A stretch of 64,000 nucleotides of DNA from the NCBI GenBank assembly GCA_012840075.1, contig DUMC01000133.1, forward strand, positions 2,792 to 66,791, given 5' to 3'. Under the pieces are notes generated by a model. The model was not told the origin of the DNA and made no database searches. It saw only the letters and a list, made by a program, of their open reading frames with translations. Of this stretch, positions 2,600 through 18,863 are shown in pieces. The position numbers and the translations under genes are program-made. This DNA is from Clostridiaceae bacterium. Its GTDB lineage: Bacteria; Bacillota; Clostridia; Acetivibrionales; DUMC01. Position 1 is the stretch's first letter. Every line of letters starts with the position of its first letter.

Positions 2600-3547
2600 A
2601 TGAATATTAAAAATGCAACTGCTATTAGCAACCCTAAGAAAGTTAAAAAGAAAAAACTATTCACCAAAAACAACATAATATTATACATTATGTTTCTTCC
2701 TGTTCTGATTTCATATATCATTTTCCATATAGTTCCTATGCCTGGAATTTATTTAGCATTTGCAGATTTCAGAGTTATGGGATTTAAGGATATATGGGTC
2801 GGCTTAGACAACTTTAAATATATTTTTAATCTCAGCAATTTTTGGGATTCATTTTGGAATACATGGGTATTTGTATTATATAATTATATTTTTGCTTTCC
2901 CGGCACCAATTCTTTTGGCATTATTATTAAATGAATTAAAGGGTAAGTATTTTAAAAAGACTATTCAAACTATCAGTTGTCTGCCTCACTTTTTGTCATG
3001 GGTAGTAATTGCTTCTATATGGATTTCTATTTTGTCGCCAAGCACAGGCTATGTTAATTTTGTTATTAAGGCACTCGGGGGAGAGCCTATTTACTTTCTT
3101 TCAAAAGCAGATCTGTTCCCTGCTTTGCTTACTTTTATCAGAATTTGGAAAGATGTAGGCTATAATGCTATTGTATACTTAGCAGCATTATCTTCAATAG
3201 ATCAAGAGCTATACGAAGCTGCCCATATTGACGGAGCAGGACGTTTTAAGCAGACTATCTATGTTACTTTGCCAGGGATTAAATCAACAATTTTAGTTTT
3301 ATTCGTATTATCATTTTCAGGAATTCTAAACTTATTTGATCCCGTTTATGTATTTCAGAATCCTATGATAGCATCTACAGCAGAAACACTTGATACTTAT
3401 ATATACAAACAAGGTGTTGTTCAAGCCAGATATTCCATGGCCACTGCCGTTGGATTATTTAAATCTGTAATTTCATTTGTTTTCGTTATTTTGACAAATG
3501 TGCTCAGTAAGTATTTTACAGAAGACAGAGAAACTATTCTCTGGTAA
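2600..3547 (+). CDS. sugar ABC transporter permease (LplB/MalF-like)
   Basis: ORF 2477-3547. I prefer ATG 2600 (AGGGG SD about 10 nt upstream) because the 41 upstream codons look like AT-rich leader. Multi-TM permease with EAA-type loop LYEAAHIDGAGRFKQTIYVTLPGIK. Confidence 0.88.
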   Translation: MNIKNATAISNPKKVKKKKLFTKNNIILYIMFLPVLISYIIFHIVPMPGIYLAFADFRVMGFKDIWVGLDNFKYIFNLSNFWDSFWNTWVFVLYNYIFAFPAPILLALLLNELKGKYFKKTIQTISCLPHFLSWVVIASIWISILSPSTGYVNFVIKALGGEPIYFLSKADLFPALLTFIRIWKDVGYNAIVYLAALSSIDQELYEAAHIDGAGRFKQTIYVTLPGIKSTILVLFVLSFSGILNLFDPVYVFQNPMIASTAETLDTYIYKQGVVQARYSMATAVGLFKSVISFVFVILTNVLSKYFTEDRETILW

Positions 3548-3566
3548 GAATGAAGGGGATGATTTT

Positions 3567-4448
3567 ATGAAGAGATCCAGAGGCGAAAAAATATTTAATG
3601 TTTTTAATATAATTTTGATGGCGATTTTCTTAGTAGTTTTATGCGTACCAGTACTTATTATATTGAGAAAATCTTTTGATATTAGCAATCAGGGCATTAT
3701 GAATCTGTCACTCTTACCAGGTGAATTCTCATTGGTATATTACAAAGTTGTATTAAATGATAAAGGTATATACAGACCGTTTCTTAATTCAGCATACATT
3801 ACAATTGTAGGAACTGCTTTATCAGTGCTTATAAATTCAATGGGTGCTTATTCATTATCAAAAAAAGATCTCCCCGGTAACAGGTACTTCATGTATATGA
3901 TTATATTCTGCATGATGTTCAGCGGCGGACTTGTACCTTCATACTTACTAATTAAAAATCTTGGATTGATTAATAGTCTTTGGTCATTAATTCTACCGGG
4001 TGCTGCAAGCGGAATGAATATAATACTACTTCGAAACTATTATAATTCTATACCACCAAGCTTAACTGAATCAGCTAAAATAGACGGTGCTGAAGAATAT
4101 ACAATATTCTTTAAGATCATCTTCCCTCTATCTGCACCAATAGTCTCAACAATCGCACTTTTTTCAGGAATTGCATATTGGAACACGTTTTTTAGTGCCA
4201 TATTGTATATTAATGATCCTAAAAAATACCCATTTACCGTTAAGTTGCAGGAAATGATTATAAAACAGCAAGCTATGCAAGAACAGTTAGAAAGATATGG
4301 TGGTGCTGCCAACCTAAGCAATAATTTGGATGATCAAGGAGTTTATTCTGCAATAATTGTAATATCAACAATTCCGATAATATTAGTTTATCCTTTGTTA
4401 CAAAAGCATTTTACAAAAGGAATTATGCTAGGATCTATAAAAGGCTAG
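3567..4448 (+). CDS. sugar ABC transporter permease (LplC/MalG-like)
   Basis: ORF 3498-4448; preferred ATG 3567 follows a GAAGGGGA SD. Multi-TM permease with EAA loop LTESAKIDGAEEYTIFFKIIFPL. Confidence 0.88.
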   Translation: MKRSRGEKIFNVFNIILMAIFLVVLCVPVLIILRKSFDISNQGIMNLSLLPGEFSLVYYKVVLNDKGIYRPFLNSAYITIVGTALSVLINSMGAYSLSKKDLPGNRYFMYMIIFCMMFSGGLVPSYLLIKNLGLINSLWSLILPGAASGMNIILLRNYYNSIPPSLTESAKIDGAEEYTIFFKIIFPLSAPIVSTIALFSGIAYWNTFFSAILYINDPKKYPFTVKLQEMIIKQQAMQEQLERYGGAANLSNNLDDQGVYSAIIVISTIPIILVYPLLQKHFTKGIMLGSIKG

Positions 4449-4602
4449 CTGATTTATGATATAATGCTTTAATATGCGTATAAAACCTCAAGTATAGAAA
4501 ATCATGTATGGTAGGAAAGGGTTTTGAGTAAGTTCTTTTAAGATCCTAACACCTGCACAAGGTGTAGTATATAATAAACAAAATTTTAAGGAGGGTCATA
4601 TA

Positions 4603-6249
4603 ATGAGTAAATCAAAAATCAAAATTTATTGCTTTATCCTATGTCTTACAATGATTGTAAGTCTTGCTGTCGGTTGCGTACAAAGCAAAAATGACGGAAC
4701 AACCAATACTCAGCAAACAACTAATAATCAGGAAAAAACTACCCAATCGGAAAATTCAACACCGGCTCAAACCGGTCCACAAAGACCTGAGGTTTTAGAA
4801 GTTACAAGAACCTTATACTTTGGCGATGCTACTGATAATCCCGAGCTAAAAGAAGAATTTATGGTTGAATTTGAAAAGAGAACAGGTCAGAAACTTAAAG
4901 TTAATGCAATTCCAAGAAATGGTTACATGGAAAAGGTTAATTTGATGATATCTTCCGGTGAATTAAAGGGTCTTGTATCCGTATTCACCCCTGCAGATGT
5001 TCTAAAAGCAATTGAAGACGGTACTGCAGAGCCACTTGATGATTACTTAAAAGACAATGCTAATTGGAATAAGTTCTCTCAGGATTACAGGGATTCGTTA
5101 AAGTTCCAAGGTCACATTTATGGTATCAATGCAGGTTATTCCGGTAACTACTTTACAAGAGCTATTAGGAAAGACTGGCTTGATAACCTTGGATTAGATG
5201 TTCCTGAAACTGTAGATGATCTCTTTGAAGTAGCGAAAGCCTTCACAGAAAATGATCCTGACCAAAACGGACAAAATGACACAGGAGGTCTTACAGCTGC
5301 AGGTACATGGAATCTTGGCGATATATTCCAAGCCTTTGATGCAAGACTCGACAATACCAGTTCCGGTTCAATCACTTGGGATCCAAAAGAAGGCGCATGG
5401 ATAGATAGTATGCTAAAACCGGGAATGATTGATGCTTTAAAATATCTGAAAAGACTTTATGATAATAAATATCTTGATAATGAATTTTTAACAAATTCAG
5501 GGAACAACATGAGAGAAAAAATTTACACCGGTAAATATGGCAGTACTTTCTACTGGGCTATGTTCGGCTATACTACCTGCAGAAATGAAATGGCTAAAAC
5601 TTTCCCTGAAGCTGAATTTGTTGAAGTTCCTGCATTAAAAGGAACAAGAACTGAACAGCTCAATCACAGAGTATTAAACGGTATTGTTTATATATTAGTT
5701 AAAGGTACAAAACAGCCTAAAGAAACTGTTAATGCATTTGTAGACCTTATATTGTGTGACAAAGATGCTCACTTTATGAGCCGCTATGGTATTGAGAATA
5801 AAACATACAAATGGGAAGGCAATACTCTCGTAATATTAAACAACCCTGAAACCGGCAAGCCTTATGATGTTCCAGGTTTAACCGGTGAAATGCCTGAATT
5901 TGGACAAGACAAATATCCAGTTATTTACGATGGGACTCCGCAAGAAAGAGAACGTTCCCTTAATGATATAAATATTAAGAATGAAATGACTGAAAAGGCA
6001 TTTAAGGAAGGTTTGTTATTCGATGTTCCTTCAGCAGCATACGATTCTCCTATATCAGCCACATTTACTAACACAAGTGTAGACTACTACAAGTTATATG
6101 AAGAAGTAATTGCTTCTGTTGTCACAGGAAAAGCAACTCCTGAAGAAGCAGTAAGGACATATAGAGAAAAGATGAAAGCTCTTGGAGCAGACAAGATCCT
6201 TGAAGAAGCAAATGCTGCTATAGGTAAAAAATCTGTTATGCAGTATTAA
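4603..6249 (+). CDS. extracellular solute-binding lipoprotein of a polysaccharide/oligosaccharide ABC transporter (LplA-like)
   Basis: 548 aa after an AAGGAGGG SD. Lipoprotein signal peptide with lipobox LAVG-C and a Thr/Gln/Asn-rich linker. Large family-1 solute-binding protein, positioned directly after two permease genes. Confidence 0.85.
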   Translation: MSKSKIKIYCFILCLTMIVSLAVGCVQSKNDGTTNTQQTTNNQEKTTQSENSTPAQTGPQRPEVLEVTRTLYFGDATDNPELKEEFMVEFEKRTGQKLKVNAIPRNGYMEKVNLMISSGELKGLVSVFTPADVLKAIEDGTAEPLDDYLKDNANWNKFSQDYRDSLKFQGHIYGINAGYSGNYFTRAIRKDWLDNLGLDVPETVDDLFEVAKAFTENDPDQNGQNDTGGLTAAGTWNLGDIFQAFDARLDNTSSGSITWDPKEGAWIDSMLKPGMIDALKYLKRLYDNKYLDNEFLTNSGNNMREKIYTGKYGSTFYWAMFGYTTCRNEMAKTFPEAEFVEVPALKGTRTEQLNHRVLNGIVYILVKGTKQPKETVNAFVDLILCDKDAHFMSRYGIENKTYKWEGNTLVILNNPETGKPYDVPGLTGEMPEFGQDKYPVIYDGTPQERERSLNDINIKNEMTEKAFKEGLLFDVPSAAYDSPISATFTNTSVDYYKLYEEVIASVVTGKATPEEAVRTYREKMKALGADKILEEANAAIGKKSVMQY

Positions 6250-6322
6250 TAAATATTAATTACTGTGTAAATCCGATTGATTAAATCCGATTGATAATGT
6301 AAAGCCTGATTGGTATTGTAAA

Positions 6323-6370
6323 TAAAGGAAGGAGAGAAATCCGTGTATATCTCCTTCCTTTATTTTTTTT
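6323..6370 (+). terminator. intrinsic terminator after the binding-protein gene
   Basis: 12-bp stem taaaggaaggag / ctccttccttta (6323-6334 with 6351-6362), followed by a run of 8 T. Confidence 0.75.
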
Positions 6371-6575
6371 GCTTATTTCCCCTTTTGGTTTTATTTGATT
6401 TCTGCTTAAATAATGGTATAATATAAATGCAACAACATACATGATAAAACAATATACATGAAAATATGTATAAACAAAATATGCTTTTATGTATAAAAAA
6501 TATTATGTATAAATAAGTAAGATGGAGATTAATTTTTTTCATTTTATATCGTTTTATATCAAGGATGTAAAGCAA

Positions 6576-8420
6576 ATGGTTTTAACAAAAATAATTAGCG
6601 CAGTGAAGTCTAAACTTAAAGTTCATAGTTTAAAAACAAAACTTATATTTGCTATATTTCTGCTTTTTGCATTTTATATAGTAGTAATAATATCAAACAA
6701 CCTTATTATGTCGCTTTTGTTAAAAGAAAAAATAAATCATTCTATAATTAATAATATAAATCAGACTAATGTATATTTATCTTTTATGTTTACGAAAGCA
6801 AAAGAATTGTCTATAGATTTGTCGGTAAGTTTTTTTGAAAATGAAAATACTAAAAAGCTTTTTAACAGTTTACCGAAAGAAAACATAGATTCATATGATC
6901 AGTATAAAGCTATTAATGACATTTATACAAATATAATATACAGAGTAAGGAATAATAGCGAAATTGACTCCATTTATATTTATAGCGAAACTGCAAAACA
7001 ATTAATAACTTCACAAGCAGGTATTTTTTCTTATAACAGCATCAAAGATTATGCATGGATTCAATCAGCACTGAGTTATGATGATAATGACAAAAAAGCA
7101 TTTAACTGGCTTGGTTATTGCTATGATAGGGACCTTTACAACCTTCATTCCAAAAAACATTTGCTATCACTTATTTCAAGAGCTGATATTATAAACAGAA
7201 ATTTAAAATCTCCGGTTTATATAGGTATAAATTATGACGAAAAATATATTTATGAAATTATAAATAATATAAAGCTTACTCCTAATACCCTGGTGTATCT
7301 TATTGATGAAAATAAACGTATAATTTCTGCTGAAGACAAAAGTATAATTGGCACTATAATAGATAATGCGAATGATCTGGATCTGAGCAACAGTAATGAA
7401 CTTATAACATCCAGAGTCAAAATTGAAAATGCCGGCAGCTATCAAAGATTATACCAGAAAAACCCTGTTACCGGTTGGGCAATTCTTATGTTTATACCGG
7501 AAAAAGAACTTTTACTCGAACAAAAGATAATCTGGATTACGGTAATTACTACACTTGTTTTAGTTTCTTTTATACTTGTGCATATTGCATCAAGGATAGT
7601 TAGCCGTTATGTTGAAAAGCCTGTTACTAAGCTGATTAGGTACATGAGTATGGCAGAAAAAGGCGACTTCAGTAACCAAATAACCGAACAAACTCAGGAT
7701 GAATTTGATTCGCTATATAGAAGCTATAATGAAATGATTAGTAGAATCAAGACATTAATAAAGGAACTTTATAAAGAAAAACTCTTGAAGCGAGAAGCGG
7801 AATTGAAGCATTTGCAAAAACAGATAAATCCTCATTTTCTATATAATACTCTAGATACTATTAATTGGATTGCAAAATCTCATAATGCCCATGATATATC
7901 CCAAATTGTTATAGCACTATCAAATTTATATAGATCAATTTTTAATAAAGGCAAAGATTACGTGGAGATTACCCATACATTACAAAGTATTGAAAATTAT
8001 TTATATATTCAGAAATTCAGATATGGTAATTCTTTCTCTTATAATATTAGTATGGATGAAAGACTTAAAGGCTATATAATATTAAATCTGCTTATCCAAC
8101 CGGTAGTTGAAAATGCACTTGTTCACGGAATTGCAAGAAAAAATGGAGTCGGAACCATATGTATAACTGCCAGCCTTGACGATAATATTATTCGTTTCAC
8201 GATTAAAGATGATGGTGCCGGTATGAGTGAAGAACAACTTAAGCTTTTGCTGGCAAACATAAATTCACAGCATATTACATCTGATTCAGGTCTTAAAAAT
8301 GTTAATAATAGGATAAAACTTTTTTACGGAGAAAAGTATGGCTTATCCATCAAAAGCGAGCTTGGTAAGGGCACTTGCGTAGAAATATGCTTACCGGCAT
8401 TTGAGTATTTGCAGTGCTGA
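6576..8420 (+). CDS. sensor histidine kinase, YesM-like (HAMP + His_kinase + HATPase_c)
   Basis: ORF 6522-8420; ATG 6576 is preferred (AAGGA SD). Two TM segments flank a ~270-aa extracytoplasmic domain. Motif LQKQINPHFLYNTLDTINW is PF06580-type; ATPase motifs are IKDDGAGM and GLKNVNNRIKLFYG. Confidence 0.85.
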   Translation: MVLTKIISAVKSKLKVHSLKTKLIFAIFLLFAFYIVVIISNNLIMSLLLKEKINHSIINNINQTNVYLSFMFTKAKELSIDLSVSFFENENTKKLFNSLPKENIDSYDQYKAINDIYTNIIYRVRNNSEIDSIYIYSETAKQLITSQAGIFSYNSIKDYAWIQSALSYDDNDKKAFNWLGYCYDRDLYNLHSKKHLLSLISRADIINRNLKSPVYIGINYDEKYIYEIINNIKLTPNTLVYLIDENKRIISAEDKSIIGTIIDNANDLDLSNSNELITSRVKIENAGSYQRLYQKNPVTGWAILMFIPEKELLLEQKIIWITVITTLVLVSFILVHIASRIVSRYVEKPVTKLIRYMSMAEKGDFSNQITEQTQDEFDSLYRSYNEMISRIKTLIKELYKEKLLKREAELKHLQKQINPHFLYNTLDTINWIAKSHNAHDISQIVIALSNLYRSIFNKGKDYVEITHTLQSIENYLYIQKFRYGNSFSYNISMDERLKGYIILNLLIQPVVENALVHGIARKNGVGTICITASLDDNIIRFTIKDDGAGMSEEQLKLLLANINSQHITSDSGLKNVNNRIKLFYGEKYGLSIKSELGKGTCVEICLPAFEYLQC

Positions 8421-8472
8421 GGAATACAGCAGTTCTGAGGACATAGAAATACTCAAAATCAATCGACCAGTA

Positions 8473-10092
8473 TCAATCAGCCAGCTCTCTATATTCCGTA
8501 GGTGTAACCCCGAAAACTTTTTTAAATACTTTTGTAAAATGGTTAACATCTTTATATTTGAGCATATCAGCAATTTCATAAATCTTATAGTTACTGTTTT
8601 TCAATAATTTCTTTGCTTCATTCATCTTAACTGTAGTTACATACTCTATAAAAGTTTCATTCATCTCCTGTTTAAAAACCCTACTCAGATAGTTTGGACT
8701 AATATATAACGCATCAGCAGTTTTTGTTAGTGAGATATCATTATAAATATTTCTGCTGATATACTCTATTGCTTTCTTTATTAAAAAGCTATTATTACTG
8801 TTTTGTCTATTTTGCAGCTCACAGATAACCCTTTCAAACAACCGATTGAGATATTCCTCAAATTGGTTTATTGTCTGAAGATTTTTAAGATCATCAAATA
8901 TTTCATTTCCATGATTGAAAAAATCTTCTATTCTTATATTAAGGGCAAATAGTATTCTAGTTATGAAAAAAGATAATAGAAATATTAAATGTTCAGATTC
9001 TTCTATATTAGCACGTAATGTTTCTTCCAGAGCAACAATTATTTTATGGGTTATTTGCCATACCTTCTCCCTATCGAATATTTTTAATGAATAGATTAAA
9101 TCATTTTCCATTTTATTTATAGTGTCTTCGAAAATATTTCCAATTAGTAAATTTTTTTCATTTGTATCAATATTTTCAATATCGATTATTACATTATTTC
9201 CTAAAAGGATTTTATATTCAAGCGCATTTAATGCTTCCCTAAACGCAAGTGAAATTCCCTTTATACCTTCGTGTATTTTTCCTAATCCTATGGTTAACAT
9301 TAAACCTATTGACTTGTTTACATGATCTTTCAATTCGGTACATTTTTTTACTAATAATTTACGGTTTATTTCATTTCCTTGTATTAAAACACCTATATTA
9401 TTATCTATATTGAAGGAATAATATTTAAACATACATTGAAACATGTTTTTTAAACTATTTTCTACTGCAAGTTTTAGCATGCTTTTGTCGTATTCACTTA
9501 TTTCACCATCATTTTTATAGTTTTGTAACTCAAGCACCAAGGCAGCATATTGAGGCATGTCCAATTCTATTCCGAGGAATTTAGCTTTATCCTTAATTAT
9601 ATTTTCATCCGATAACTTTCCGGAAGCAATTTGATTAAGAAATATGTCCCTCAATATCGGAATATTATCTTTCAGTTGTTTTTTTAAATTCTCATCGGAC
9701 CTTATCTTATTAAATTGATCTTCAATAATATTTTTTGCCTCAAGTATTTTTGAAAATAATTTTTTATCATCTATTGGTTTTAATATGTAACTGAAAGCAT
9801 TAAGTTCAATAGCTTTTTGAGCATATTCAAACTCATCGTATCCGCTAATTAGGATTACTTTTATGTTTGAATATTTTTCTCTTATTACTTCAAGCACTTC
9901 AAGCCCATCTATATCCATCAATTTTATGTCAAGAATAACAATTTCAGGGGTATATTTTTCTATGAGTTCCAAAGCTTCATAACCGCTTGAAGCGGTTCCG
10001 CATACTTTGAGCCCATACTCATCCCATTTGAAAGTATTTTTTATTCCTTCTCTTATAGTATATTCATCATCAACGATTAAAACATTTATCAT
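8473..10092 (-). CDS. two-component response regulator, CheY receiver + AraC-type HTH (YesN-like)
   Basis: Receiver motifs VLIVDDE and ILDIKLMDIDG. C-terminal AraC HTH: ISPNYLSRVFKQEMNETFIEYV...FKKVFGVTPTEYR. The start lies 11 nt after the stop of the upstream URO-D gene, with a GAGGTG SD overlapping that stop. Confidence 0.9.
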   Translation of the reverse strand: MINVLIVDDEYTIREGIKNTFKWDEYGLKVCGTASSGYEALELIEKYTPEIVILDIKLMDIDGLEVLEVIREKYSNIKVILISGYDEFEYAQKAIELNAFSYILKPIDDKKLFSKILEAKNIIEDQFNKIRSDENLKKQLKDNIPILRDIFLNQIASGKLSDENIIKDKAKFLGIELDMPQYAALVLELQNYKNDGEISEYDKSMLKLAVENSLKNMFQCMFKYYSFNIDNNIGVLIQGNEINRKLLVKKCTELKDHVNKSIGLMLTIGLGKIHEGIKGISLAFREALNALEYKILLGNNVIIDIENIDTNEKNLLIGNIFEDTINKMENDLIYSLKIFDREKVWQITHKIIVALEETLRANIEESEHLIFLLSFFITRILFALNIRIEDFFNHGNEIFDDLKNLQTINQFEEYLNRLFERVICELQNRQNSNNSFLIKKAIEYISRNIYNDISLTKTADALYISPNYLSRVFKQEMNETFIEYVTTVKMNEAKKLLKNSNYKIYEIADMLKYKDVNHFTKVFKKVFGVTPTEYRELAD

Positions 10093-10103
10093 TGCTAAAC
10101 ACC

Positions 10104-11114
10104 TCAGAATTTATTCCATTCATCGAAAACTGCCTCAATATTTTCTCTGGAATCATTTTTCCCCCATTCACACTGTGCTATAACACCGGTTCTTTTTCCT
10201 TTTATTAAGGAATTAGCAACACGTTTTACAGCATTTCTTACATCTTCCTCCGTACCAAAAGGTAATATATGCTGCCTGTCTATTTCACCCCAAAATGTTA
10301 TCTTCCCGGAATACAGCTTACCTAGCTTTTCTATGTCCATGCAGAATAGTTGCGAATTTACAGCATCTACACCTATTTCAATAAGATCAGGATAAATAAG
10401 CTCAATGTTTCCGTCAGAATGAAAAAATACGTACTTGCCTTTTTCATGTAATATGTCACAGTATTCCTTATAAAGAGGTTTAAAAATATCTCGCCATTGT
10501 TCAGGAGATATTAATAAGGTCTTCTGTGTGCCCCAATCGTCCATAAATGACACAGCATCTACATCCGTATTTGCCCACATCAAAAGCTCTTTTATATAAA
10601 AATCATGAATCATATCTCTAAGTTTGTACACTTCTTTTGTTCCGTAAGCCAGATCTATGAACAGTTTTTCTGTTCCTCTAAGAAATTGCATTCTTTCAAA
10701 AGGTCTTATTCCTGTTCCGGCAAGCATAAATTTATCAGACTTGGCACAGCATTCATTTACTTGCGAAAGATCTGCTTCTTCAATTATTTCCCATGGGAGC
10801 TCATAATTATCAAGATTTGTCCAATCATCGAGAGGAGGTTCTTTTACTTCCCCTACCACGCCTGGTTCTGCAACATACCACACACAACCCCAACTGTCCA
10901 CGTAATGACCTACTTCATTAGGATTTCCTCTTTCTCGTTTGCCAACTCCATATCTATAGCTGGGACCTGCGATATCCAAAGGAAATTTCTTGAGCACCTC
11001 TTCAAGTTCTTCTTTTCGATATTTTGGTACATATGGTAAGCACCATAAATCCCTTGGAATTCTGTCAACCTCTTCTTGACGCAAAGTGCGTATTACTCTT
11101 TCCCTTGAATTCAT
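10104..11114 (-). CDS. uroporphyrinogen decarboxylase (URO-D/MtaA) family protein, paralog 1
   Basis: 336 aa after an AAGGAGGAG SD. N-terminus MNSRERVIRTLRQEEVDRIPRD and the central segment FFHSDGNIELIYPDLIEIGVDAVN are typical of the URO-D TIM-barrel family. The HxC zinc motif of MtaA-type enzymes reads HSD here. Confidence 0.7.
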   Translation of the reverse strand: MNSRERVIRTLRQEEVDRIPRDLWCLPYVPKYRKEELEEVLKKFPLDIAGPSYRYGVGKRERGNPNEVGHYVDSWGCVWYVAEPGVVGEVKEPPLDDWTNLDNYELPWEIIEEADLSQVNECCAKSDKFMLAGTGIRPFERMQFLRGTEKLFIDLAYGTKEVYKLRDMIHDFYIKELLMWANTDVDAVSFMDDWGTQKTLLISPEQWRDIFKPLYKEYCDILHEKGKYVFFHSDGNIELIYPDLIEIGVDAVNSQLFCMDIEKLGKLYSGKITFWGEIDRQHILPFGTEEDVRNAVKRVANSLIKGKRTGVIAQCEWGKNDSRENIEAVFDEWNKF

Positions 11115-11140
11115 TTGTAAAACTCCTCCTTTTCTTTTTA

Positions 11141-11449
11141 GACAAGGGTAGACAAGGGGACGGTTCTCTTGTCTTGAGACAGGGGGACGGTTCTCTTGTC
11201 TGAAGTTGGGAAACTATCTCCCCTCTAAGAAAATGTGAACAGTTCTCTTATCTAAAATGGAGGAATTGCCTCCCTTCGACCTGGTGTCGATTTTCTTATC
11301 TGAGATAGAGAAACCATCTCCCTACCTACCCAGACAGAAGAACCGTTCCTTTGAATGACTTTTGTATGATAGACAGAAGAACCGTCCCCCTGTCTCAGAA
11401 GAACCGTCCCCCTGTCTCATCTCCCCCTGTCTCATCCCCCTGTCTCACC
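11141..11449. repeat. intergenic inverted-repeat cluster (REP/MITE-like) built from the ~26-nt unit GAGACAGGGGGACGGTTCTCTTGTCT
   Basis: Forward units lie at 11151-11174 and 11176-11201. Reverse-complement units lie at 11371-11396 and 11397-11418, with truncated cccctgtctca copies to 11446. Unit 11176-11201 matches the reverse complement of 11371-11396 at 24 of 26 positions. Degenerate copies fill the middle. Confidence 0.85.
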
Positions 11450-12526
11450 TTAATACGTTCCCAATTCTAAGCCTTTTTCAATAAAATATTTATAAGTTTC
11501 ATAATTAACTGTGTTTGGGATTGAATGGTCACTATGAAGGGCATAGCCGTAATTGCCCATCACAATTGGTATTTTTGACTCTAATTCTTTTCTTACCAGT
11601 TCTTTGTCGTTTGTATACAAAACTCTAACATCAATTCCTCCCATAAATGAAAGCCTGTCGCCATATTCTTTATACAACTTGATTAAATCCATTCCGGCTT
11701 TTACTTCAATTACCTGCAAGCAATCCATACCTGCTTCCAGCAATCCGGGTATTAAAGGCTCTATAAAACCGCATGAATGTACAATTACAGGCAAGTTATG
11801 GGAATGTGCAAAATCAAAAGTCTTTTTATGTCCTGGTTGTATTATTTCCTTATACATTGCAGGTGATATAAACGGTTTTCCCTTGAAGCCCATGTCTTCG
11901 TAATACCATATGCCATCCGGATAACCTTCCTGTGCAAATAGTATTTCCTGCAAGCTTATTGTCAAATTAGTATATGTTTCCACCATGTCTTTTATCCAAT
12001 CAGGATCAAGGGCCATGCCAATTAACATATATTCATGTCCGCAAACAGGATGCATCAATTCAAATATGTTTACTCCCGACCATACAAAAAACCGGTTATT
12101 TTCAGCCGCATGTTGCTTTGCTTTCCTGTATCCTTCAAAGTTTATTCTCCTCGGATCCGGTTTTAATTTCGGTTTTATATGCTCTTCCCATGCTTCACGG
12201 TCTTTAACCAGAAAATCCACATGTTCAGGTGTAGAATCGTGAAGTTTATGTCTTCGGAGTAAAGCTCCGTTTCCATCTCTCGTTAAAATAGTTTCTTCCG
12301 TTTCTTCGACCACTTCGGGAACAAAATCGATATCCGCTACCATTTTAAAAGCCCAGAATTCTTCCATATCAAAGCCGAAATGATCGGCAAAACTTTCATT
12401 TTCTTTAATAAATCCATCTTCGGTCCATTTTTTATGGGTATCTCTCCAAAAATGTTCATAAAGCCCTATTCTATCCACAGGTTTTCTTTTCAAAATATTT
12501 GTCATACGTTCAATACCGGTCATCAT
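11450..12526 (-). CDS. uroporphyrinogen decarboxylase (URO-D/MtaA) family protein, paralog 2
   Basis: 358 aa after a GAGGGGAG SD. MMTGIERMTNILKRKPVDRIG...VIVHSCGFIEPLIPGLLEAGMDCLQVIE. It retains an H-x-C motif like the Zn-dependent MtaA/MtbA-type methyltransferases. Confidence 0.7.
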   Translation of the reverse strand: MMTGIERMTNILKRKPVDRIGLYEHFWRDTHKKWTEDGFIKENESFADHFGFDMEEFWAFKMVADIDFVPEVVEETEETILTRDGNGALLRRHKLHDSTPEHVDFLVKDREAWEEHIKPKLKPDPRRINFEGYRKAKQHAAENNRFFVWSGVNIFELMHPVCGHEYMLIGMALDPDWIKDMVETYTNLTISLQEILFAQEGYPDGIWYYEDMGFKGKPFISPAMYKEIIQPGHKKTFDFAHSHNLPVIVHSCGFIEPLIPGLLEAGMDCLQVIEVKAGMDLIKLYKEYGDRLSFMGGIDVRVLYTNDKELVRKELESKIPIVMGNYGYALHSDHSIPNTVNYETYKYFIEKGLELGTY

Positions 12527-12682
12527 GTTTATATTCTCCCCTCATTACAATAACAGTTTAAAGCACACCACATCTATTATACTACTACAACTTATATTCT
12601 TCTATAAATTTTTTAATTTTAATAATTTTTATTTGAAATAAGTCAATCCTAAAGCAATATTTATTCATAATTACCTTCACAT

Positions 12683-13636
12683 TTATTTATAAATACCTTC
12701 CGATTTCCATATTTCCAGCATAAGTTCATATCTTTCCAAGGGCATTCCAGTATATATGCAATTTGAAGTTGAAAAAATATACCCTCCGCCCGGCATGCCA
12801 TGCTTTAATGCATATCTTACGGATTCAATAACTTGTTCTTCGGTTCCGGTCTGCAAAAGACCGCAATTAACATTTCCAATAAGACATACTTTGTCCCCAA
12901 CCAGTTTTTTTACTTCTGCAATATCAACCCCTGCCTGAGGGTCCAATGAATGAAGTGCATGGGGATTTGCTTCTACTAACTGATCAAGTATAGGCATTAT
13001 ATTTCCATCGGTGTGCTTTATAGTGTAAAAACCCATATCTCTATATCCTTTGATCAATTTTGCCAAATAAGGAGTTACAAACTCTGAAAACATTGAAGGA
13101 CTTAAAAAAGGTCCCTTATTCAAACAATAATCCGCACACAAGGCAAATCCGTCAAGTCCTCCGTGTTTTTGTATTTTTTCTGCCCTGTCAAGAGCTTCTT
13201 CTACTCTTCTGTTAGCTTCTTCTTTTAGTTTTTCCGGCTCGTCGGCAATCCTATAGCTGAATTCCTGCATATGTTCACCGTCGGGTATTGAAAAAGTTGC
13301 ATCCCCGTGCATCATCAGAAAATATTTGTCTCCGGTTTTTTCTCTTACAAGATCAATCATTCTTAATATCTCATCCAATCTTGACGGGTTAAAGTGAAGA
13401 AAAATAGCACTATGATCATATTTCTCTGCCGTTGCTATGTAAATATCAGCCATATCATTTCTATGTAATTCTCTTTCTTTTTCACTCATTTGATCCCACT
13501 GGCTGTAATAGCGATGCAACGGATGTACTTTGTTAAAAGCTTCCATTGTAAGATAAAAAACAAGTTCAAAATGAGGTACAAGGCCCGTTATTGGTTTTCT
13601 TTCCAAAGCAGCAATAAATCTTTCCCTAGGTTTCAT
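12683..13636 (-). CDS. uroporphyrinogen decarboxylase (URO-D/MtaA) family protein, paralog 3
   Basis: ORF 12683-13696; ATG 13636 is preferred (GGGAG SD 8 nt upstream; product starts MKPRERFIAALERKPI, as in family members). The central motif reads IKHTDGNIMPILDQLVE. Confidence 0.7.
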   Translation of the reverse strand: MKPRERFIAALERKPITGLVPHFELVFYLTMEAFNKVHPLHRYYSQWDQMSEKERELHRNDMADIYIATAEKYDHSAIFLHFNPSRLDEILRMIDLVREKTGDKYFLMMHGDATFSIPDGEHMQEFSYRIADEPEKLKEEANRRVEEALDRAEKIQKHGGLDGFALCADYCLNKGPFLSPSMFSEFVTPYLAKLIKGYRDMGFYTIKHTDGNIMPILDQLVEANPHALHSLDPQAGVDIAEVKKLVGDKVCLIGNVNCGLLQTGTEEQVIESVRYALKHGMPGGGYIFSTSNCIYTGMPLERYELMLEIWKSEGIYK

Positions 13637-13692
13637 GTTATCAACTCCCACTGAAATCAAAGTAAAGTAGAGGTAATTTGTAATTTTGTTTT

Positions 13693-16161
13693 TCACGCCA
13701 AAATAATTTCTTTTACTTCTATTTCACCGTCTACAACTTCAATAAATGGCTTTCCATCTTTAACTCCCGCAGTACCAAATCCCGTATTGGTTGAAATAAA
13801 ACTTCTGAAATCCCCTTTAATGTTTGGTTTGATGTACAATACTTTATCAACAGCATCATATCTTATGCCGGTAAACCCCTGTAACAATGCATAAGAAGCC
13901 AATGCCCTTGCATACCAATGGCCACATTCATATTCATTAAACGGATTTCTATAGGTACCATCGTATCTTTGCCTGCATGTTCTTACAATATCCAATCCCT
14001 CATTTACATATCCCATGCTGATTAAATGGGAAGCTACCTGATATTCTATTCCTGTCCACACTTCATCGCTATAAACAAAAGGTATTGACGGCTTTTCACC
14101 TCTAGGCCATGTACAAAGCAGGAGTCCCCCTTCTTTTCCTATGGCATAACCCGGTCTTTGTGGATTGGAGTGATCAGTCAAATCTTTTTTTAGATTATAT
14201 TTATACACACTGAGCAGATGTTTTCTTACTTTATCGCTGTCGACTATTTCACCCAACCCACAAACCATTGCCATCCATGCACCTATTATTCCATCCGAAA
14301 GACAACCGCTTCCATATTGGTATTTTGGTCCTTCCTTCATGAACAGCTCTCTGTTTTCATCATTCATTTCATCAATATTAATTTTTGTTTTTAAATCGCT
14401 CCATTGAATTTTTTGTATAAAGTATTCTCCGTTAAATAATGACTCTTCTAGGAATTTTCTTCCCTTTTCATATAATTCGTCATATAGAGTGTGGTAATCT
14501 CCGAGAAACTTAGCCATCAATGATGCTGCTTTCAAAGCACCCAAATAAATTGAACAACACATTCCGTCCGGACCCCAAAATTCTATATCATATGTGTTAT
14601 GATGAGGTTCTTTTAAGATACCTTCTCTATCCGGGTCCCATGTCTCGATACAATAATTTATACTGGATTTCACTTTAGGCCATATTTCTCTAAGCCAGTT
14701 ATTGTCCCCGCTAATGCGCCAATCCCTATACACTTTCATGATTCCACCCAATTGCCCATCAGCCGCTGCATAAAAATCGTGACCAGACGGACGTATGGGC
14801 AATGAAGCCCTAAACTGCTGGTGTCCTCTTTCATCTTGGGATTCATTGAATTCAGTCTGTCTTAAACTTCTTTCAAGTTCAGGAAACAAATGGCATAAAG
14901 CCTGAGCATAGTTCCAAACATGAGTGCATGTTCCCGTACAGCATCCCGATGTATCATAGCATCCTTCCCAGCACCATAATCTACCGTCTGTTTGTCTTAA
15001 AACGGTAGGTGATTTTAATATCACAAGGTTTGCTGTAACAGCTTCTATTATTTCTTCGGGTAATGTTGTATCATAAAAACACTTGGTAAATCGTAAAGTT
15101 TTATTATAAAGTTTCTCATAGTTTTGAGACCAATATTGTGCTACTTCGATAATACTTGAAAACTTTGCCGAATACCATGGCTTGTATGTTTCTTTTCTAT
15201 TTTCTTTTTCATTTACGTTGCATTCACAATTGCAACAGCATCCAGTACCGACACCTGAATTGTTCACATCTCCTTCAAACTCTTTTCCATACCTTAAGTC
15301 AGAATTTGGTACGTACCAGGACAACATAAGCTTTATAGTTTTTTCTTCCCGAGGTTTTAATGCAAAGGGCACATATATGCTTGCACCGGGACTGGGCATT
15401 TGTCCTTCAGGATAACTTCCTTCAATCACTATTCCCTTTTCAATATTATTCCACAACATTGTCAAGGTATCAAACCATCTTCCCCTGAACCATGAACAAT
15501 TAACTTTTACATCAGGATCATTCACGATTGCACAAAAAGCTCCCTCTTCCCATGGTTTATCCTGAACCGATGGTTGTTCAAGAATAAATCCTCTGTCAAG
15601 TTTTACAACCCTTTCATTACCTGCACCGGTTTTCATGAAGTTGCTAGCATTGAAAGAATATATGCATTCTAGCTCTTCGTTTGATTCATTTTTAAAATTA
15701 AATTCCAATCCTGCTACAGGTAAACTTGAGTTAAACGTATCGTTCGGAATAAAAGGGCTCCATCCTGTGATTTTAACACTCAACGGCACCTTTTCATCAT
15801 TTAGATAAACTATTCCAAAGGGGAAAATAGCTCTAAAAGAGTTGTGTCTAAATCTGGATAGTCCGTAATTTTTTCCGGATAAACCATTACCCATGTCTTT
15901 CCCTAGCCCGAATATTTTATACATAGGAACCGGTCCCTCAAGAACCTTTGCAATATTTTTGCCCTTTTTAACTTTAATACAAATAGCGGAAAAAACATTA
16001 GGCTCATTATGCACATCAGGTTTGTTTCTTATAGAGAAATGTGACAATGCACCTGTTCCCTCAAGGCATATCATTCCTGCACCAATGCCGCCCATGGGAT
16101 ATGCTATAAATCCGGTTTTTTCTTTGGGATATTCCTTGACGTTTTTTATACTTTCTATCAT
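13693..16161 (-). CDS. glycoside hydrolase family 116 (GBA2-type beta-glucosidase-like)
   Basis: 822 aa after a GGAAGGAGAG SD. N-terminal GBA2-type domain (YPMGGIGAGMICLEGTGALSHFSIRNKPD) and C-terminal (alpha/alpha)6 catalytic region (DERGHQQFR...PHHNTYDIEFWGPDGMCCSIYLGAL...NPFNEYECGHWYARALASY). Confidence 0.85.
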   Translation of the reverse strand: MIESIKNVKEYPKEKTGFIAYPMGGIGAGMICLEGTGALSHFSIRNKPDVHNEPNVFSAICIKVKKGKNIAKVLEGPVPMYKIFGLGKDMGNGLSGKNYGLSRFRHNSFRAIFPFGIVYLNDEKVPLSVKITGWSPFIPNDTFNSSLPVAGLEFNFKNESNEELECIYSFNASNFMKTGAGNERVVKLDRGFILEQPSVQDKPWEEGAFCAIVNDPDVKVNCSWFRGRWFDTLTMLWNNIEKGIVIEGSYPEGQMPSPGASIYVPFALKPREEKTIKLMLSWYVPNSDLRYGKEFEGDVNNSGVGTGCCCNCECNVNEKENRKETYKPWYSAKFSSIIEVAQYWSQNYEKLYNKTLRFTKCFYDTTLPEEIIEAVTANLVILKSPTVLRQTDGRLWCWEGCYDTSGCCTGTCTHVWNYAQALCHLFPELERSLRQTEFNESQDERGHQQFRASLPIRPSGHDFYAAADGQLGGIMKVYRDWRISGDNNWLREIWPKVKSSINYCIETWDPDREGILKEPHHNTYDIEFWGPDGMCCSIYLGALKAASLMAKFLGDYHTLYDELYEKGRKFLEESLFNGEYFIQKIQWSDLKTKINIDEMNDENRELFMKEGPKYQYGSGCLSDGIIGAWMAMVCGLGEIVDSDKVRKHLLSVYKYNLKKDLTDHSNPQRPGYAIGKEGGLLLCTWPRGEKPSIPFVYSDEVWTGIEYQVASHLISMGYVNEGLDIVRTCRQRYDGTYRNPFNEYECGHWYARALASYALLQGFTGIRYDAVDKVLYIKPNIKGDFRSFISTNTGFGTAGVKDGKPFIEVVDGEIEVKEIILA

Positions 16162-16232
16162 TTATTTCTCTCCTTCCTCAGTATGCTTCAATTTTTTATT
16201 CAAGGTGAGTAAAATAGTAAAATAGTTATATA

Positions 16233-16321
16233 AACTCTCGAGTACAATTATAAGCATTAAGTACTCTTGAGTACAATTTATCAGCATTAAAGCATTCTTG
16301 AATATAATTTATTATCTTTAA
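16233..16321. promoter_or_regulatory. three tandem ~30-bp direct repeats upstream of the GH116 operon (candidate activator sites)
   Basis: aactctcgagtacaattataagcattaa / gtactcttgagtacaatttatcagcattaa / agcattcttgaatataatttattatctttaa. They lie 70-160 bp upstream of the GH116 start codon. Confidence 0.45.
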
Positions 16322-16567
16322 TCACTGGGGAAGACAATGCCGGTTTTAATCTACACATAATCATTATAGCCATAAAAAAATTATAACACTTTTACCATTA
16401 AATGCAATATGATTATATTTGAAATGATAAAATGTTATAGATTGTTTATGTCAATTTCTATGTGTTATAATTATTTTATGTTTATGAAAAGCAGGTAATA
16501 ATTTAAGTGAAAATATAACCGAAAAAACTATTAGTACTATGAAATGTAAACCATATAAACGAGGTTA

Positions 16568-17989
16568 ATGATGAATATGAAATTATTATGGCATGAATTG
16601 AGATTGATAATAACTATACTAATTGGAAAAATTTTAATAGTCTTATGTAGATTTGCTAAACTGGGAGGTACATCTTTTCCCGGAAAGGTCGCAGAAAAAT
16701 TATGCCCCGGTATACTTAGAGAACTATCTTCAGGACTCAAATTAATAATGGTTACAGGAACTAACGGTAAAACTACTACAACCAGGATTATAGAAAAAAT
16801 TCTTCAGGAAAATAAAATACAATATATAACAAATAAATCAGGTGCCAACCTTGTTAACGGGGTTATAACAGCCTTTATTGAAGCTGTCGATTTTTTGGGA
16901 AAAACTGATGCAAGCATTGCTCTTATTGAGATAGATGAAGCTGCGTTTTCAAAAATATGCAACTTAATAGTACCTCATGTGCTGATCGTAACTAATTTTT
17001 TCAGGGATCAGCTTGACAGATATGGAGAATTGTATGGTACCCTGAAATTAGTTAAAAAAACGGCAGCTTTATTTGAAAATATCAAGTTGGTCCTGAATGC
17101 TGATGATTCGCTTTGCGCTTCAATAGGTAAAGATCTGAAAAATGAAGTTACATATTATGGCATAGATAAAGATGTAAAGCATTCCACATCTTCAAATAAT
17201 GAAGCCTATGATTCTAAAGACGCAGTCTTTTGTTTATACTGTCAAAGCAAATATGAATATGATTATCACACCTATGGACATCTTGGAGGCTTTAGATGCC
17301 CAAATTGTGGCTATGCACGACCTTCAGCGGATATCTCCTGCACTGAAATTGATGAAATGAAAGATACTCATACGGATATTAAAATGCGCGTTTCAAATCA
17401 AGTTATCAAGGCAAGAGTCAATCTTCCAGGTTTGTATAACATATATAATGCTTTAGCTGCTACAGCCTGCAGTGAAGTCCTTGGGTTGCCCATACAGAAT
17501 ACAGTGAAAGCCATTGGTTCATTCGAATCAGGCTTTGGAAGGATGGAAACTATTCCGGCAGATGGCAAATTCCTAAAGTTGATACTTGTTAAAAATCCAA
17601 CCGGCTTTGATCAAGTCTTAAGTTACTTTATTGAACAAAACGATAGCAATATGCAGATTGCTTTTATAATAAATGACAATGCTGCAGATGGAAGGGATAT
17701 TTCATGGCTTTGGGACGTTGAATTTGAGAAACTTTTGAACATTAGCCATAAAGAACCGGAATTTTATGTTTCAGGCTTGAGAGCTGAAGATATGGCAGTA
17801 AGGCTTAAGTACGCAGGTATTGATACAAATAAGATAACTATTATTAAAGACTATGAAGAGCTTGTTAATAAGGGCTTATTAAGAACCCAACAAAGTAAAA
17901 GCTTTTACATATTGCCTACTTATACCGCCATGCTGGAATTAAGAAAGCTTCTGAAAGTAAAATATAATCTTCATGATTTTTGGGAATGA
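16568..17989 (+). CDS. murT: lipid II isoglutaminyl synthase, Mur-ligase-like subunit MurT
   Basis: Mur ligase P-loop VTGTNGKTTTTRI. Characteristic Cys4 ribbon CLYCQSKYEYDYHTYGHLGGFRCPNCG. C-terminal DUF1727-like region. Followed by gatD. The start could be 16568 or 16571. Confidence 0.85.
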   Translation: MMNMKLLWHELRLIITILIGKILIVLCRFAKLGGTSFPGKVAEKLCPGILRELSSGLKLIMVTGTNGKTTTTRIIEKILQENKIQYITNKSGANLVNGVITAFIEAVDFLGKTDASIALIEIDEAAFSKICNLIVPHVLIVTNFFRDQLDRYGELYGTLKLVKKTAALFENIKLVLNADDSLCASIGKDLKNEVTYYGIDKDVKHSTSSNNEAYDSKDAVFCLYCQSKYEYDYHTYGHLGGFRCPNCGYARPSADISCTEIDEMKDTHTDIKMRVSNQVIKARVNLPGLYNIYNALAATACSEVLGLPIQNTVKAIGSFESGFGRMETIPADGKFLKLILVKNPTGFDQVLSYFIEQNDSNMQIAFIINDNAADGRDISWLWDVEFEKLLNISHKEPEFYVSGLRAEDMAVRLKYAGIDTNKITIIKDYEELVNKGLLRTQQSKSFYILPTYTAMLELRKLLKVKYNLHDFWE

Positions 17990-18083
17990 TTATTGGAATG
18001 ATTACAAGAATAAATATGGAAATGATTATTGGAATGAAGCTTAAATATTTTCACTAAACATTTTCATGAAAGGTGTAATGTTA

Positions 18084-18863
18084 ATGTATACAATTGAAAT
18101 ATGCCACTTGTATCCTGAAATATTAAACTTATACGGAGATAAAGGAAATATCACGGCATTGAAAAAACGGTGCGAATGGCGTGGTATTGATGTAAAAATT
18201 CATAACATTTCATTGGAGGATGATTTTAATCCCGATAATTATGATATTATTTTCATCGGCGGTGGACAGGATTATGAGCAGGAAATTGTAAAAGATGACC
18301 TTTTGCATAAAAAAGGTGCTGCAATTAAAGAAGCTATTGAAGGTAATAAAGTTTTTCTTGCAATTTGCGGAGGATACCAATTACTCGGAAAATACTATAA
18401 AACCAAAGAAGGTAAAGAATTAGAATTTCTTGGAGCTCTTGATTTTTGGACAAACGGCGATGAAAAAAGAATGATTGGTAATGTAATTATAGAATGTGAT
18501 TTTTTAAAAAGCGAGTCATTTGACGGAAAAATAGTCGGTTTTGAAAACCATTCGGGGAAAACATACCTGGGAAAAGACATAACCCCTTTGGGAAAAGTTA
18601 TTATCGGCTACGGAAATAACGGTGAGGACGGATATGAAGGAGCTGTTTATAAAAATGTCTATTGTTCATATCTGCATGGAAGTCTACTCCCTAAAAATCC
18701 CGCATTTACTGATTTTCTGCTGGAAAAAGCACTTAATAACAAATACAAGGATTTCGGAACACTTCCAAATCTCGATGATTCCTTCGAAATGGCGGCTCGT
18801 AATTCTGTAATCAACAGACTGATCACTTCAAATAAAATAAATAAACTCCGAAAAATTTTTTAA
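18084..18863 (+). CDS. gatD: lipid II isoglutaminyl synthase, glutaminase subunit GatD (CobB/CobQ-type GATase)
   Basis: ORF 18066-18863; ATG 18084 is preferred (AAAGGTG SD 8 nt upstream). Catalytic Cys in LAICGGYQLLG and His in CSYLHGSLLPKNP. Confidence 0.8.
   Translation: MYTIEICHLYPEILNLYGDKGNITALKKRCEWRGIDVKIHNISLEDDFNPDNYDIIFIGGGQDYEQEIVKDDLLHKKGAAIKEAIEGNKVFLAICGGYQLLGKYYKTKEGKELEFLGALDFWTNGDEKRMIGNVIIECDFLKSESFDGKIVGFENHSGKTYLGKDITPLGKVIIGYGNNGEDGYEGAVYKNVYCSYLHGSLLPKNPAFTDFLLEKALNNKYKDFGTLPNLDDSFEMAARNSVINRLITSNKINKLRKIF

Follow-up and report, generated by a model that had tools for sequence, protein, structure and literature searches.

What do three genes of the uroporphyrinogen decarboxylase (URO-D) family do next to genes for glycan breakdown? 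The question is raised by a 64-kb stretch of contig DUMC01000133.1 (positions 2,792 to 66,791; Clostridiaceae bacterium, assembly GCA_012840075.1), which was analysed as a whole and is called the window below. Here, the paralogues UROD3, UROD2 and UROD1 follow a gene for a family GH116 glycoside hydrolase. The answer we favour, held with roughly even confidence, is that the three proteins are corrinoid-protein-dependent methyltransferases of uncharacterised UroD clades, that their corrinoid partner is encoded elsewhere, and that their likeliest substrates are O-methyl sugars. The gene map was drawn from the list of open reading frames (ORFs) and from Pfam and NCBIfam scans, Pfam coverage extending to 40 of the long ORFs across the window. 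It confirmed the gene content and order given in a preliminary description of the same DNA, namely GH116-UROD3-UROD2-UROD1-response regulator on the minus strand. The genes at issue are:

10104–11114, minus strand: UROD1, 336 amino acids (aa), PF01208 at 3e-17, HSD motif
11450–12526, minus strand: UROD2, 358 aa, PF01208 at 2e-14, HSC motif
12683–13636, minus strand: UROD3, 317 aa counted from the ATG at 13636, PF01208 at 8e-22, HTD motif
13693–16161, minus strand: GH116 glycoside hydrolase, 822 aa, Pfam Glyco_hydr_116N at 3.3e-42 and GH116 catalytic domain at 1.4e-62

The reading frame of UROD3 is open back to a GTG at 13696 (ORF 12683–13696). Because all listed orthologues (316–355 aa) start at the methionine of the ATG at 13636, and because a GGGAG site precedes this codon, the true start is probably 13636; the stop codon of GH116 and UROD3 would therefore be 56 bp apart and would not overlap.

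Family, fold and conserved residues

The three proteins score 63.1, 53.9 and 78.1 bits against PF01208, all above the cut-off of 23.9, and are 26–27% identical to one another, aligned over the central and C-terminal barrel. Structure modelling with AlphaFold2 and Foldseek comparison covered UROD3 and UROD2. Both models, with a predicted local distance difference test (pLDDT) score of 87.6 for UROD3 and 92.9 for UROD2, show the URO-D (beta/alpha)8 barrel, and against structures of MtaA (PDB entry 4ay7) and HemE they gave template modelling (TM) scores of 0.69–0.77 at 10–18% identity. The best Foldseek match of UROD3 was MtaA 4ay7 (TM 0.75, 16% identity), while UROD2 reached about 0.71 to HemE and to MtaA. 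The best NCBIfam matches were models of MtaA and CmuA; the curated MtaA, MtbA and HemE models yielded 26–61 bits against cut-offs of 235–600 (TIGR01463, NF004889, NF040654 and NF041608 for MtaA/MtbA), and the HemE model TIGR01464 gave 30.1 bits for UROD3 against a cut-off of 302.95 and did not match UROD1 or UROD2. In sequence searches of the PDB, UROD3 matched the chloromethane enzyme CdmB (1.4e-5 to 2.6e-5) and MtaA 4ay7 (4.7e-5), UROD2 matched MtaA 4ay7 marginally (E of 0.028–0.37) and UROD1 had no match, so that the sole significant PDB sequence matches of the trio are corrinoid methyltransferases. The URO-D fold holds for UROD3 and UROD2, and all three proteins lie outside every characterised subfamily.

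It is hardly credible that UROD1–3 are ordinary HemE, classical MtaA/MtbA methylcobamide:coenzyme M methyltransferases or members of the type 1 mlp clusters. Their membership in PF01208 and the weak matches to MtaA and HemE models would fit such an assignment; the distance to the curated cut-offs and the marginal or absent PDB sequence matches effectively rule out the first two identities. With HemE the proteins share the fold and the Pfam family, and they differ from it in sequence (10–18% identity; 30 bits against 303 for TIGR01464), in the conserved His/Asp/Cys set, which HemE lacks, and in gene context. No haem or tetrapyrrole genes were seen among the annotated window ORFs or in the related loci inspected. 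In agreement with the preliminary description, Pfam annotation of the 40 long ORFs revealed no corrinoid (B12-binding) protein, MtaB, RACE activase or haem gene in the window, tblastn of the window with B12-binding and MtaB queries gave no match, and the window contains no cobalamin riboswitch, Rfam reporting one tRNA only.

In concept, type 1 mlp clusters come closest to the trio and resemble it in that several anciently diverged UroD paralogues are kept in one cluster, that their variable synteny suggests horizontal spread and that they have no assigned function (Kountz & Balskus, bioRxiv 2023, PMC10418091). A corrinoid protein and a RACE activase are part of every such cluster, obligate anaerobes are the only hosts, and the Mlp proteins, for which methyl-sulfur or methyl-selenium compounds have been proposed as substrates, are about 30% identical to MtbA (PMC10418091). 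UROD1–3, in contrast, are much farther from MtaA, lack both partners locally and have relatives in many phyla. Judged against the published Mlp description, membership was rejected on the marginal similarity to MtaA and the absence of a corrinoid protein and RACE from the window.

According to the preliminary description, the paralogues differ at the position of the MtaA zinc motif, and the alignments bear this out, HSC (UROD2), HSD (UROD1) and HTD (UROD3) falling into one column. In a profile of UROD2 orthologues, H250-S-C252 coincides exactly with the H-I-C motif of M. mazei MtaA 4ay7, which supplies two of the zinc ligands of that enzyme. The motifs are conserved within each orthogroup: H208-T-D210 and S-T-S-N-C293 are invariant or near-invariant in UROD3 (C293 invariant), as are H250-S-C252 and H331-S-D-H334 in UROD2, and in UROD1 H232, D234 and E316 are invariant and S233 and C315 nearly so. 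As to the distal Cys of the MtaA zinc site, UROD2 has H331-S-D-H334 at the distal position, and the candidates in UROD1 and UROD3 are C315 and C293. Because of this conservation within orthogroups, the motif differences are fixed traits of three old lineages and not drift; the divergence noted earlier is real, but it belongs to old, separately conserved clades and not to recent paralogues.

Homology searches (E<=1e-3) retrieved 5339, 7671 and 7041 homologues for the three proteins. The best 120 for each are 65–100% identical to the query, and the few of these with a named source come from many phyla. The genome from which the window stems is low in GC and Clostridia-like, with metagenome-assembled genomes (MAGs) of "Clostridiaceae bacterium" from digesters as its nearest named relatives. 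With one genome scanned for each GTDB species, UROD3 relatives came to light in at least 581 species, and clustering of the UROD3 orthogroup at 50% identity left very few representatives (177 at E<=1e-30). The top 80 UROD3 loci, 71–88% identical to the window protein and with a median pairwise identity of 73%, were taken for neighbourhood analysis. They stem from more than 10 phyla (among the hosts are Clostridia, Armatimonadota, Chloroflexota, Verrucomicrobiota, Planctomycetota, Lentisphaerota, Kiritimatiellota, Sumerlaeota, Calescamantes, Omnitrophota and others), and the hosts are mostly saccharolytic heterotrophs, not methylotrophs or acetogens. The corresponding UROD2 set comprises 80 loci on metagenome contigs with orthologues 66–85% identical; UROD1 orthologues are 65–82% identical. 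To judge from these comparisons, UROD1–3 are ancient paralogues, each in its own large, uncharacterised clade conserved at 65–88% over more than 10 phyla and remote from HemE, MtaA/MtbA and the Mlp proteins described in the literature. Since identity is so high amid scattered gene contexts, the pattern points to strong constraint combined with horizontal spread.

Corrinoid-protein and sugar genes beside the orthologues

The neighbourhoods of UROD3 were searched with a tblastn panel over 10 kb in the 80 loci; the neighbour counts depend on tblastn thresholds, and kinship between loci is handled by a crude count of lineages at 85% identity only. An MtaC-like B12-binding gene, its domain confirmed by Pfam, lies within 10 kb of the UROD3 orthologue in 11 of the 80 loci and directly adjoins it in about eight of the 11, these adjacent cases representing at least five lineages at <85% identity. 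The corrinoid gene is found downstream (L024, L031, L050, L061 and L068) or upstream (L049 and L054) of UROD3, with gaps of 0–80 bp in L024, L031, L050 and L068. In L032, a 538-aa ORF (11245–12861) directly downstream of the UROD3 orthologue carries a B12-binding domain at its N terminus and a URO-D domain at its C terminus, a fusion like those of the CmuA type but with the domain order reversed. Locus L045 (1028–12584) unites one MtaC-like corrinoid protein, a RACo/RamA reductive activase (6715–8256, composed of Fer2, Raco_middle and RACo_C_ter) and seven URO-D genes including a 75% identical UROD3 orthologue, and further multi-URO-D clusters with a corrinoid protein occur in L052, L054 and L077, the last also having an MtaB-like gene.

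The UROD2 loci give the same picture. B12-binding_2/B12-binding is the most frequent family among the immediate neighbours (8/80 loci, seven lineages at <85% identity), the gene starting roughly 30–150 bp past the end of the UROD2 match, and the second most frequent is another URO-D (seven loci). In L002 the order is B12-binding, MtaB, UROD2 orthologue. The corrinoid evidence is thinnest for UROD1, copies of which (61–64% identity) adjoin UROD2 and a corrinoid protein in L166 and L172.

Because corrinoid carrier genes are rare in genomes and immediate adjacency is repeated at high orthology, we regard these gene orders as strong evidence that enzymes of the UROD2 and UROD3 types act on a corrinoid protein. 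The pairing of a single UROD2 or UROD3 gene with a corrinoid gene would, by analogy, be the pattern typical of substrate:corrinoid methyltransferases (MT I), for which MtaB and MtaC are an example. All characterised members of the UroD superfamily other than HemE work on a corrinoid protein (PMC13222342, PMC10418091). The idea of methyl removal put forward in the preliminary description gains real support from related loci, in which orthologues of UROD2 (66–85%) and UROD3 (71–88%) repeatedly adjoin genes for MtaC-like proteins, once together with RACo. The other genes in the corrinoid-containing loci showed nothing consistent except AraC regulators.

As a separate observation, a conserved protein family of about 350–370 aa without a Pfam match recurs in or beside URO-D clusters, in L002 (6951–8012, directly after the UROD2 orthologue), L054 (10951–12060 and 15173–16267), L049 and L028. 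It may be another component of these URO-D systems.

The same neighbourhoods bear on a different explanation, by which the proteins are corrinoid-independent, metal-dependent TIM-barrel enzymes of sugar catabolism on a URO-D scaffold, catalysing decarboxylation of uronic or keto acids, isomerisation or elimination, and corrinoid neighbours mark a minority of lineages. Such enzymes would account for the lack of a corrinoid gene in the window and in most orthologous loci, for recurrent neighbours such as GFO/IDH/MocA, MR_MLE dehydratase, AP_endonuc_2, cupin, lyxose isomerase and glycosidases, for the His-x-Asp that UROD1 and UROD3 have where MtaA has His-x-Cys and for the occurrence of the clades in phyla that include aerobes; a cofactor-free decarboxylase, HemE, exists in the superfamily. 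The explanation nevertheless seems improbable to us. Function is normally conserved at 66–88% identity, and at this level a corrinoid protein is the commonest immediate neighbour of UROD2 and among the commonest of UROD3. In addition, RACo lies within one cluster (L045), a corrinoid domain is fused to URO-D in L032, and the similarity to HemE does not go beyond the fold. A decarboxylase role, the other option of the preliminary description, found no support.

If the enzymes are corrinoid-dependent methyltransferases, the next question is whose methyl groups they take. The clearest sugar context is L180, from a Firmicutes MAG, where genes for a substrate-binding protein (SBP), two permeases, a UROD1 orthologue (70%), a further URO-D, a GH38 enzyme, a fucose-isomerase-like protein and an FGGY kinase follow one another on one strand, with 22 bp between the last permease and the UROD1 orthologue. 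The region 607–18454 of this locus has two modules of sugar ATP-binding cassette (ABC) importers, each followed by a URO-D gene, the upstream one in the order SBP-permease-permease-URO-D; a gene of the MTTB family of corrinoid-dependent methyltransferases stands at the upstream edge of the locus. Across the surveys, about 10 of the 80 UROD3 loci (nine lineages, at least six phyla) have a gene for a GH38 alpha-mannosidase next to or close to UROD3, versus 1/80 UROD2 loci, whereas an apiosidase-like gene (PF13204/Collagen_bind_2) lies near UROD2 in 8/80 loci (three lineages), and also in Mahella, versus 0/80 UROD3 loci. For such family-specific enrichment, each survey acts as the control of the other. 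The neighbours also repeatedly include LacI, GntR and ROK regulators, GFO/IDH/MocA oxidoreductases, MR_MLE dehydratase, lyxose isomerase, GH31 and LplABC-like importers; in L010, for example, UROD1 is followed by a GFO oxidoreductase, in L123 an LplABC-like importer lies directly upstream of the UROD2 orthologue, and L001, L005 and L007, besides L010 and L123, provide further sugar contexts. The sugar link is real, and more diffuse than the preliminary description supposed: an association with glycan genes stands, given URO-D genes on one strand with sugar genes in L180 and the GH38 adjacency, but its framing around GH116 does not. In a full-text literature search, no paper was found that connects URO-D family genes with glycan loci, with GH116 or GH38, or with methylated sugars; the relevant finds were limited to the Mlp preprint, the CdmB paper and the P450 sugar demethylase.

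The neighbourhoods also leave room for corrinoid methyltransferases that act on non-sugar substrates, the glycan genes being accidental neighbours in mosaic genomes. Candidates are methanol (e.g. from pectin), methoxylated aromatics of lignin and methylated sulfur, selenium or nitrogen compounds. UROD3 neighbourhoods are highly heterogeneous (179 Pfam families among the 89 genes within two positions of UROD3 in the first 23 loci); GH116, regulator and importer are not conserved partners; the loci with a corrinoid protein show no sugar genes; MtaB adjoins UROD2 orthologues in L002 and L165 and lies near UROD3 in L077, and L180 has the MTTB gene. Moreover, methoxy-aromatics, haloalkanes and thiols are the substrates of the UroD methyltransferases known so far (PMC13222342, PMC10418091). 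Yet accident does not readily explain the position of the URO-D genes in L180, 22 bp behind a sugar ABC importer and ahead of GH38, isomerase and kinase on the same strand, nor the GH38/UROD3 and apiosidase-like/UROD2 enrichments, which control one another, the recurrence of LacI, GntR and ROK sugar regulators and GFO oxidoreductases beside the genes, or hosts that are for the most part saccharolytic. We therefore consider non-sugar substrates possible but unlikely.

Genes of ClpC/ClpB-type AAA+ ATPases, sometimes as a tandem pair, adjoin UROD3 in 7/80 loci (six to seven loci, five lineages), upstream of UROD3 in L016, L017 and L021 and further in L042, L048, L084 and L090. They headed the list of families among the genes within two positions of UROD3 in the first 23 loci, but a ClpC-type ATPase as a conserved partner of UROD3 was set aside as lineage-specific synteny.

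A mosaic locus

How much of the window's own gene arrangement belongs to the URO-D genes can be read from close relatives:

L096 (UROD3 94% identical): MurT/GatD, then GH116-UROD3-UROD2, the same as in the window
L093 and L094 (UROD3 91%, UROD2 92%): MurT/GatD, UROD3-UROD2, then unrelated genes, without GH116, UROD1 or the regulator
L095 and L100 (87/85/82% to the window URODs): UROD3-UROD2-UROD1 tightly packed, without GH116 upstream

GH116 is present in L096–L099 (87–90% identity; UROD3 94%) and not in L093, L095 and L100, that is, it is missing in relatives at 87–92% identity, and its presence or absence amounts to a 2.7-kb indel adjoining MurT. In L095 and L100, regulator-like DNA was not found 3' of UROD1. 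Because L095 and L100 keep all three URO-D genes contiguous and L093 keeps UROD3-UROD2, in each case without GH116 or the regulator, the conserved module is the trio UROD3-UROD2-UROD1. GH116, by the same comparison, is a lineage-specific add-on, as is the block of regulator, kinase, importer and lyase. The broader surveys concur, with GH116 in 0/80 UROD3 loci and in 1/80 UROD2 loci (L124, 6 kb off). A conserved GH116/URO-D operon was accordingly rejected by close-relative synteny and both surveys, and the regulator and importer fared no better as conserved partners.

A further sign of mosaicism lies between UROD2 and UROD1. The gaps between GH116, UROD3, UROD2, UROD1 and the regulator are 56, 156, 335 and 11 bp, and the 335-bp gap contains a stable hairpin element that resembles a miniature inverted-repeat transposable element (MITE). 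Its termini are imperfect inverted repeats of 62 nt, themselves composed of 22–27-nt subrepeats (core GAGACAGGGGGACGGTTCT), and its predicted RNA fold has an energy of -150.6 kcal/mol (z = -8.7). Since L095 and L100 lack the element of about 297 bp at the same site, it is an insertion; the alignment spacing of UROD2 and UROD1 is 12 bp there versus 309 bp in the window. Further copies were found neither in the window nor in the 184 fetched loci. The element now separates UROD2 from UROD1 and the regulator. The single operon of the preliminary description is thus not borne out, the relatives showing a mosaic block and the hairpin element interrupting it; scans for promoter and terminator consensus sequences around the URO-D genes gave no clear picture.

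The element and the genes on the far side of UROD1 are:

1–2238, minus strand: heparinase II/III-like protein with alginate-lyase fold (Hepar_II_III_C 7e-16, Hepar_II_III_N 2.5e-10, Alginate_lyase 1e-5), its 3' end beyond the window edge
2477–6249, plus strand: LplABC-type oligosaccharide ABC importer (Pfam BPD_transp_1 twice, SBP_bac_1, DUF3502)
2477–3547 and 3498–4448, plus strand: permeases of the importer (BPD_transp_1)
4603–6249, plus strand: DUF3502-type binding protein (SBP) of the importer (SBP_bac_1, DUF3502)
6522–8420, plus strand: YesM-like sensor histidine kinase (Pfam dCache, HAMP, His_kinase, HATPase_c)
8473–10092, minus strand: YesN-like response regulator (Pfam receiver, GGDEF_2 and AraC helix-turn-helix), 11 bp past the UROD1 stop
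11140–11432, no strand: MITE-like repeat element of about 297 bp between UROD2 and UROD1, recognised by its repeats and by comparison with relatives

Pfam confirms the importer and the heparinase II/III-like protein as neighbours. The two-component pair is split over the strands, the regulator lying behind UROD1 and converging on the kinase, which follows the importer genes; this arrangement is unusual for YesMN-type pairs.

The remaining window genes are housekeeping genes, strikingly many of them for glutamine amidotransferases and nitrogen assimilation. Over some 40 kb (16568–59455) the density of such genes is unusual, with MurT and GatD, CarA, CarB, NadE, a type III glutamine synthetase, an ANTAR response regulator, a split glutamate synthase (GATase_2, Glu_synthase and GXGXG in separate ORFs), trpEGDCFBA, GatB/GatA, a GATase_7 protein, GuaA, HisF, a glutamine-dependent NAD synthetase, ArgG and ArgH.

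Proposed reaction, related systems and significance

How would such an enzyme work? The TIM-barrel protein would dock a small B12 carrier protein of the MtaC type, whose Co(I) would take the methyl group from the substrate, while a metal on the conserved His-x-Cys/Asp plus Cys/His would activate the leaving oxygen or sulfur. By analogy, these residues could hold a Lewis-acid metal that activates a leaving oxygen; zinc is used in this way by some O-demethylases and by MtaB, but not by CdmB (PMC13222342). Another UroD paralogue or an unlinked enzyme would then move the methyl group from CH3-Co(III) to an acceptor, e.g. tetrahydrofolate, with the trio's corrinoid protein and activase supplied from elsewhere in the genome. 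We infer the substrates, methyl-ether (O-methyl) sugars freed from imported oligosaccharides, because the orthologues adjoin cytoplasmic exo-glycosidases and sugar importers. They are plausible as such but without precedent, as we know of no corrinoid demethylase for O-methyl sugars.

Among known systems, the trio is closest in several respects to MtaA/MtbA/MtsA (4ay7), with which it shares the TIM-barrel fold (TM 0.71–0.75), the best curated-model matches and, in UROD2, a His-x-Cys at the position of the MtaA zinc motif; MtaA-type enzymes work with MtaC, and the UROD orthologues adjoin MtaC-like proteins. It differs in identity (13–17%, with scores far under the cut-offs), in the His-x-Asp of UROD1 and UROD3, in the third ligand, in having hosts that are bacteria without coenzyme M and in the absence of a corrinoid gene at the window locus. 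The other closest characterised relatives are the UroD-type MT I enzymes, comprising the O-demethylases MtvB, OdmB, VdmB and MtoB and the chloromethane enzyme CdmB (PDB 9rui; PMC13222342). Like these, UROD orthologues are paired with a corrinoid-protein gene, the division into MT I, corrinoid protein, MT II and activase is echoed in the clusters L045, L052, L054 and L077, and CdmB is, next to MtaA, the only significant PDB sequence match of UROD3 (1.4e-5). This similarity is, however, weak and limited to the C-terminal half, and the MT I enzymes are about 430 aa long with extra insertions, are found in acetogens and archaea, with aromatic methyl ethers or haloalkanes as substrates, whereas the UROD genes stand in saccharolytic contexts and belong to clades of far higher conservation and wider distribution. 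A functional parallel to the proposed role, removal of a sugar methyl ether, is the P450 6-O-methyl-D-galactose demethylase of marine Bacteroidetes, which is encoded among glycan-utilisation genes and lets glycan catabolism proceed (PMC6292453). Its fold and chemistry are unrelated, and it oxidises the methyl group to formaldehyde in an O2-dependent reaction, whereas a corrinoid route could work without oxygen. UROD1–3 are set apart from these systems by the H-x-D variant of UROD1 and UROD3, by their very wide spread and by their glycosidase contexts.

Several points weigh against reading UROD1–3 as corrinoid-dependent demethylases of sugars. The 64-kb window has no corrinoid protein, activase, pterin-type methyltransferase or cobalamin riboswitch, and a corrinoid gene within 10 kb is missing in about 85–90% of the orthologous loci. 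Identity to every characterised corrinoid methyltransferase is below 20%; by alignment, UROD1 and UROD3 have Asp in place of the zinc-binding Cys of MtaA, and the third MtaA ligand is not Cys in UROD2. Corrinoid methyltransferase systems are rare in aerobes, and many of the host phyla include aerobes (Armatimonadota, Caldilineaceae, Verrucomicrobiota). The loci with corrinoid genes and those with GH38 barely overlap. Finally, the genes in the fetched loci come from a simple ORF caller, and the neighbour-family frequencies are raw values from within the surveyed loci.

A broader proposal is that the three clades form an unrecognised, O2-independent corrinoid system that strips methyl ethers from sugars and has spread horizontally through saccharolytic bacteria of more than 10 phyla. 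We offer it tentatively, as something that would be surprising but is worth considering. Its substrates could include 2-O-methyl-fucose and 2-O-methyl-xylose from rhamnogalacturonan II, O-methyl-mannose of algal, fungal or invertebrate glycans and 4-O-methyl-glucuronate of xylan.

O-methylated sugars, which ordinary sugar catabolism cannot get past, occur widely in the glycans of plants, algae, fungi and bacteria. To our knowledge, the only sugar demethylase described is the O2-dependent P450 of marine bacteria, and we know of no route to the use of methyl-ether sugars in digesters, guts, sediments and other anoxic habitats. Should the sugar substrate be right, UROD enzymes would explain how sugars are demethylated in places closed to P450-type enzymes. 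The link, if it holds, would also add a new substrate class to the corrinoid methyltransferases and connect the breakdown of glycans with one-carbon metabolism and with the demand for B12 in many uncultured saccharolytic lineages. Few uncharacterised members of the UroD superfamily are as conserved and as widespread as the UROD clades, and even with another substrate the analysis would improve on the label "uroporphyrinogen decarboxylase family protein" that thousands of genes now carry.

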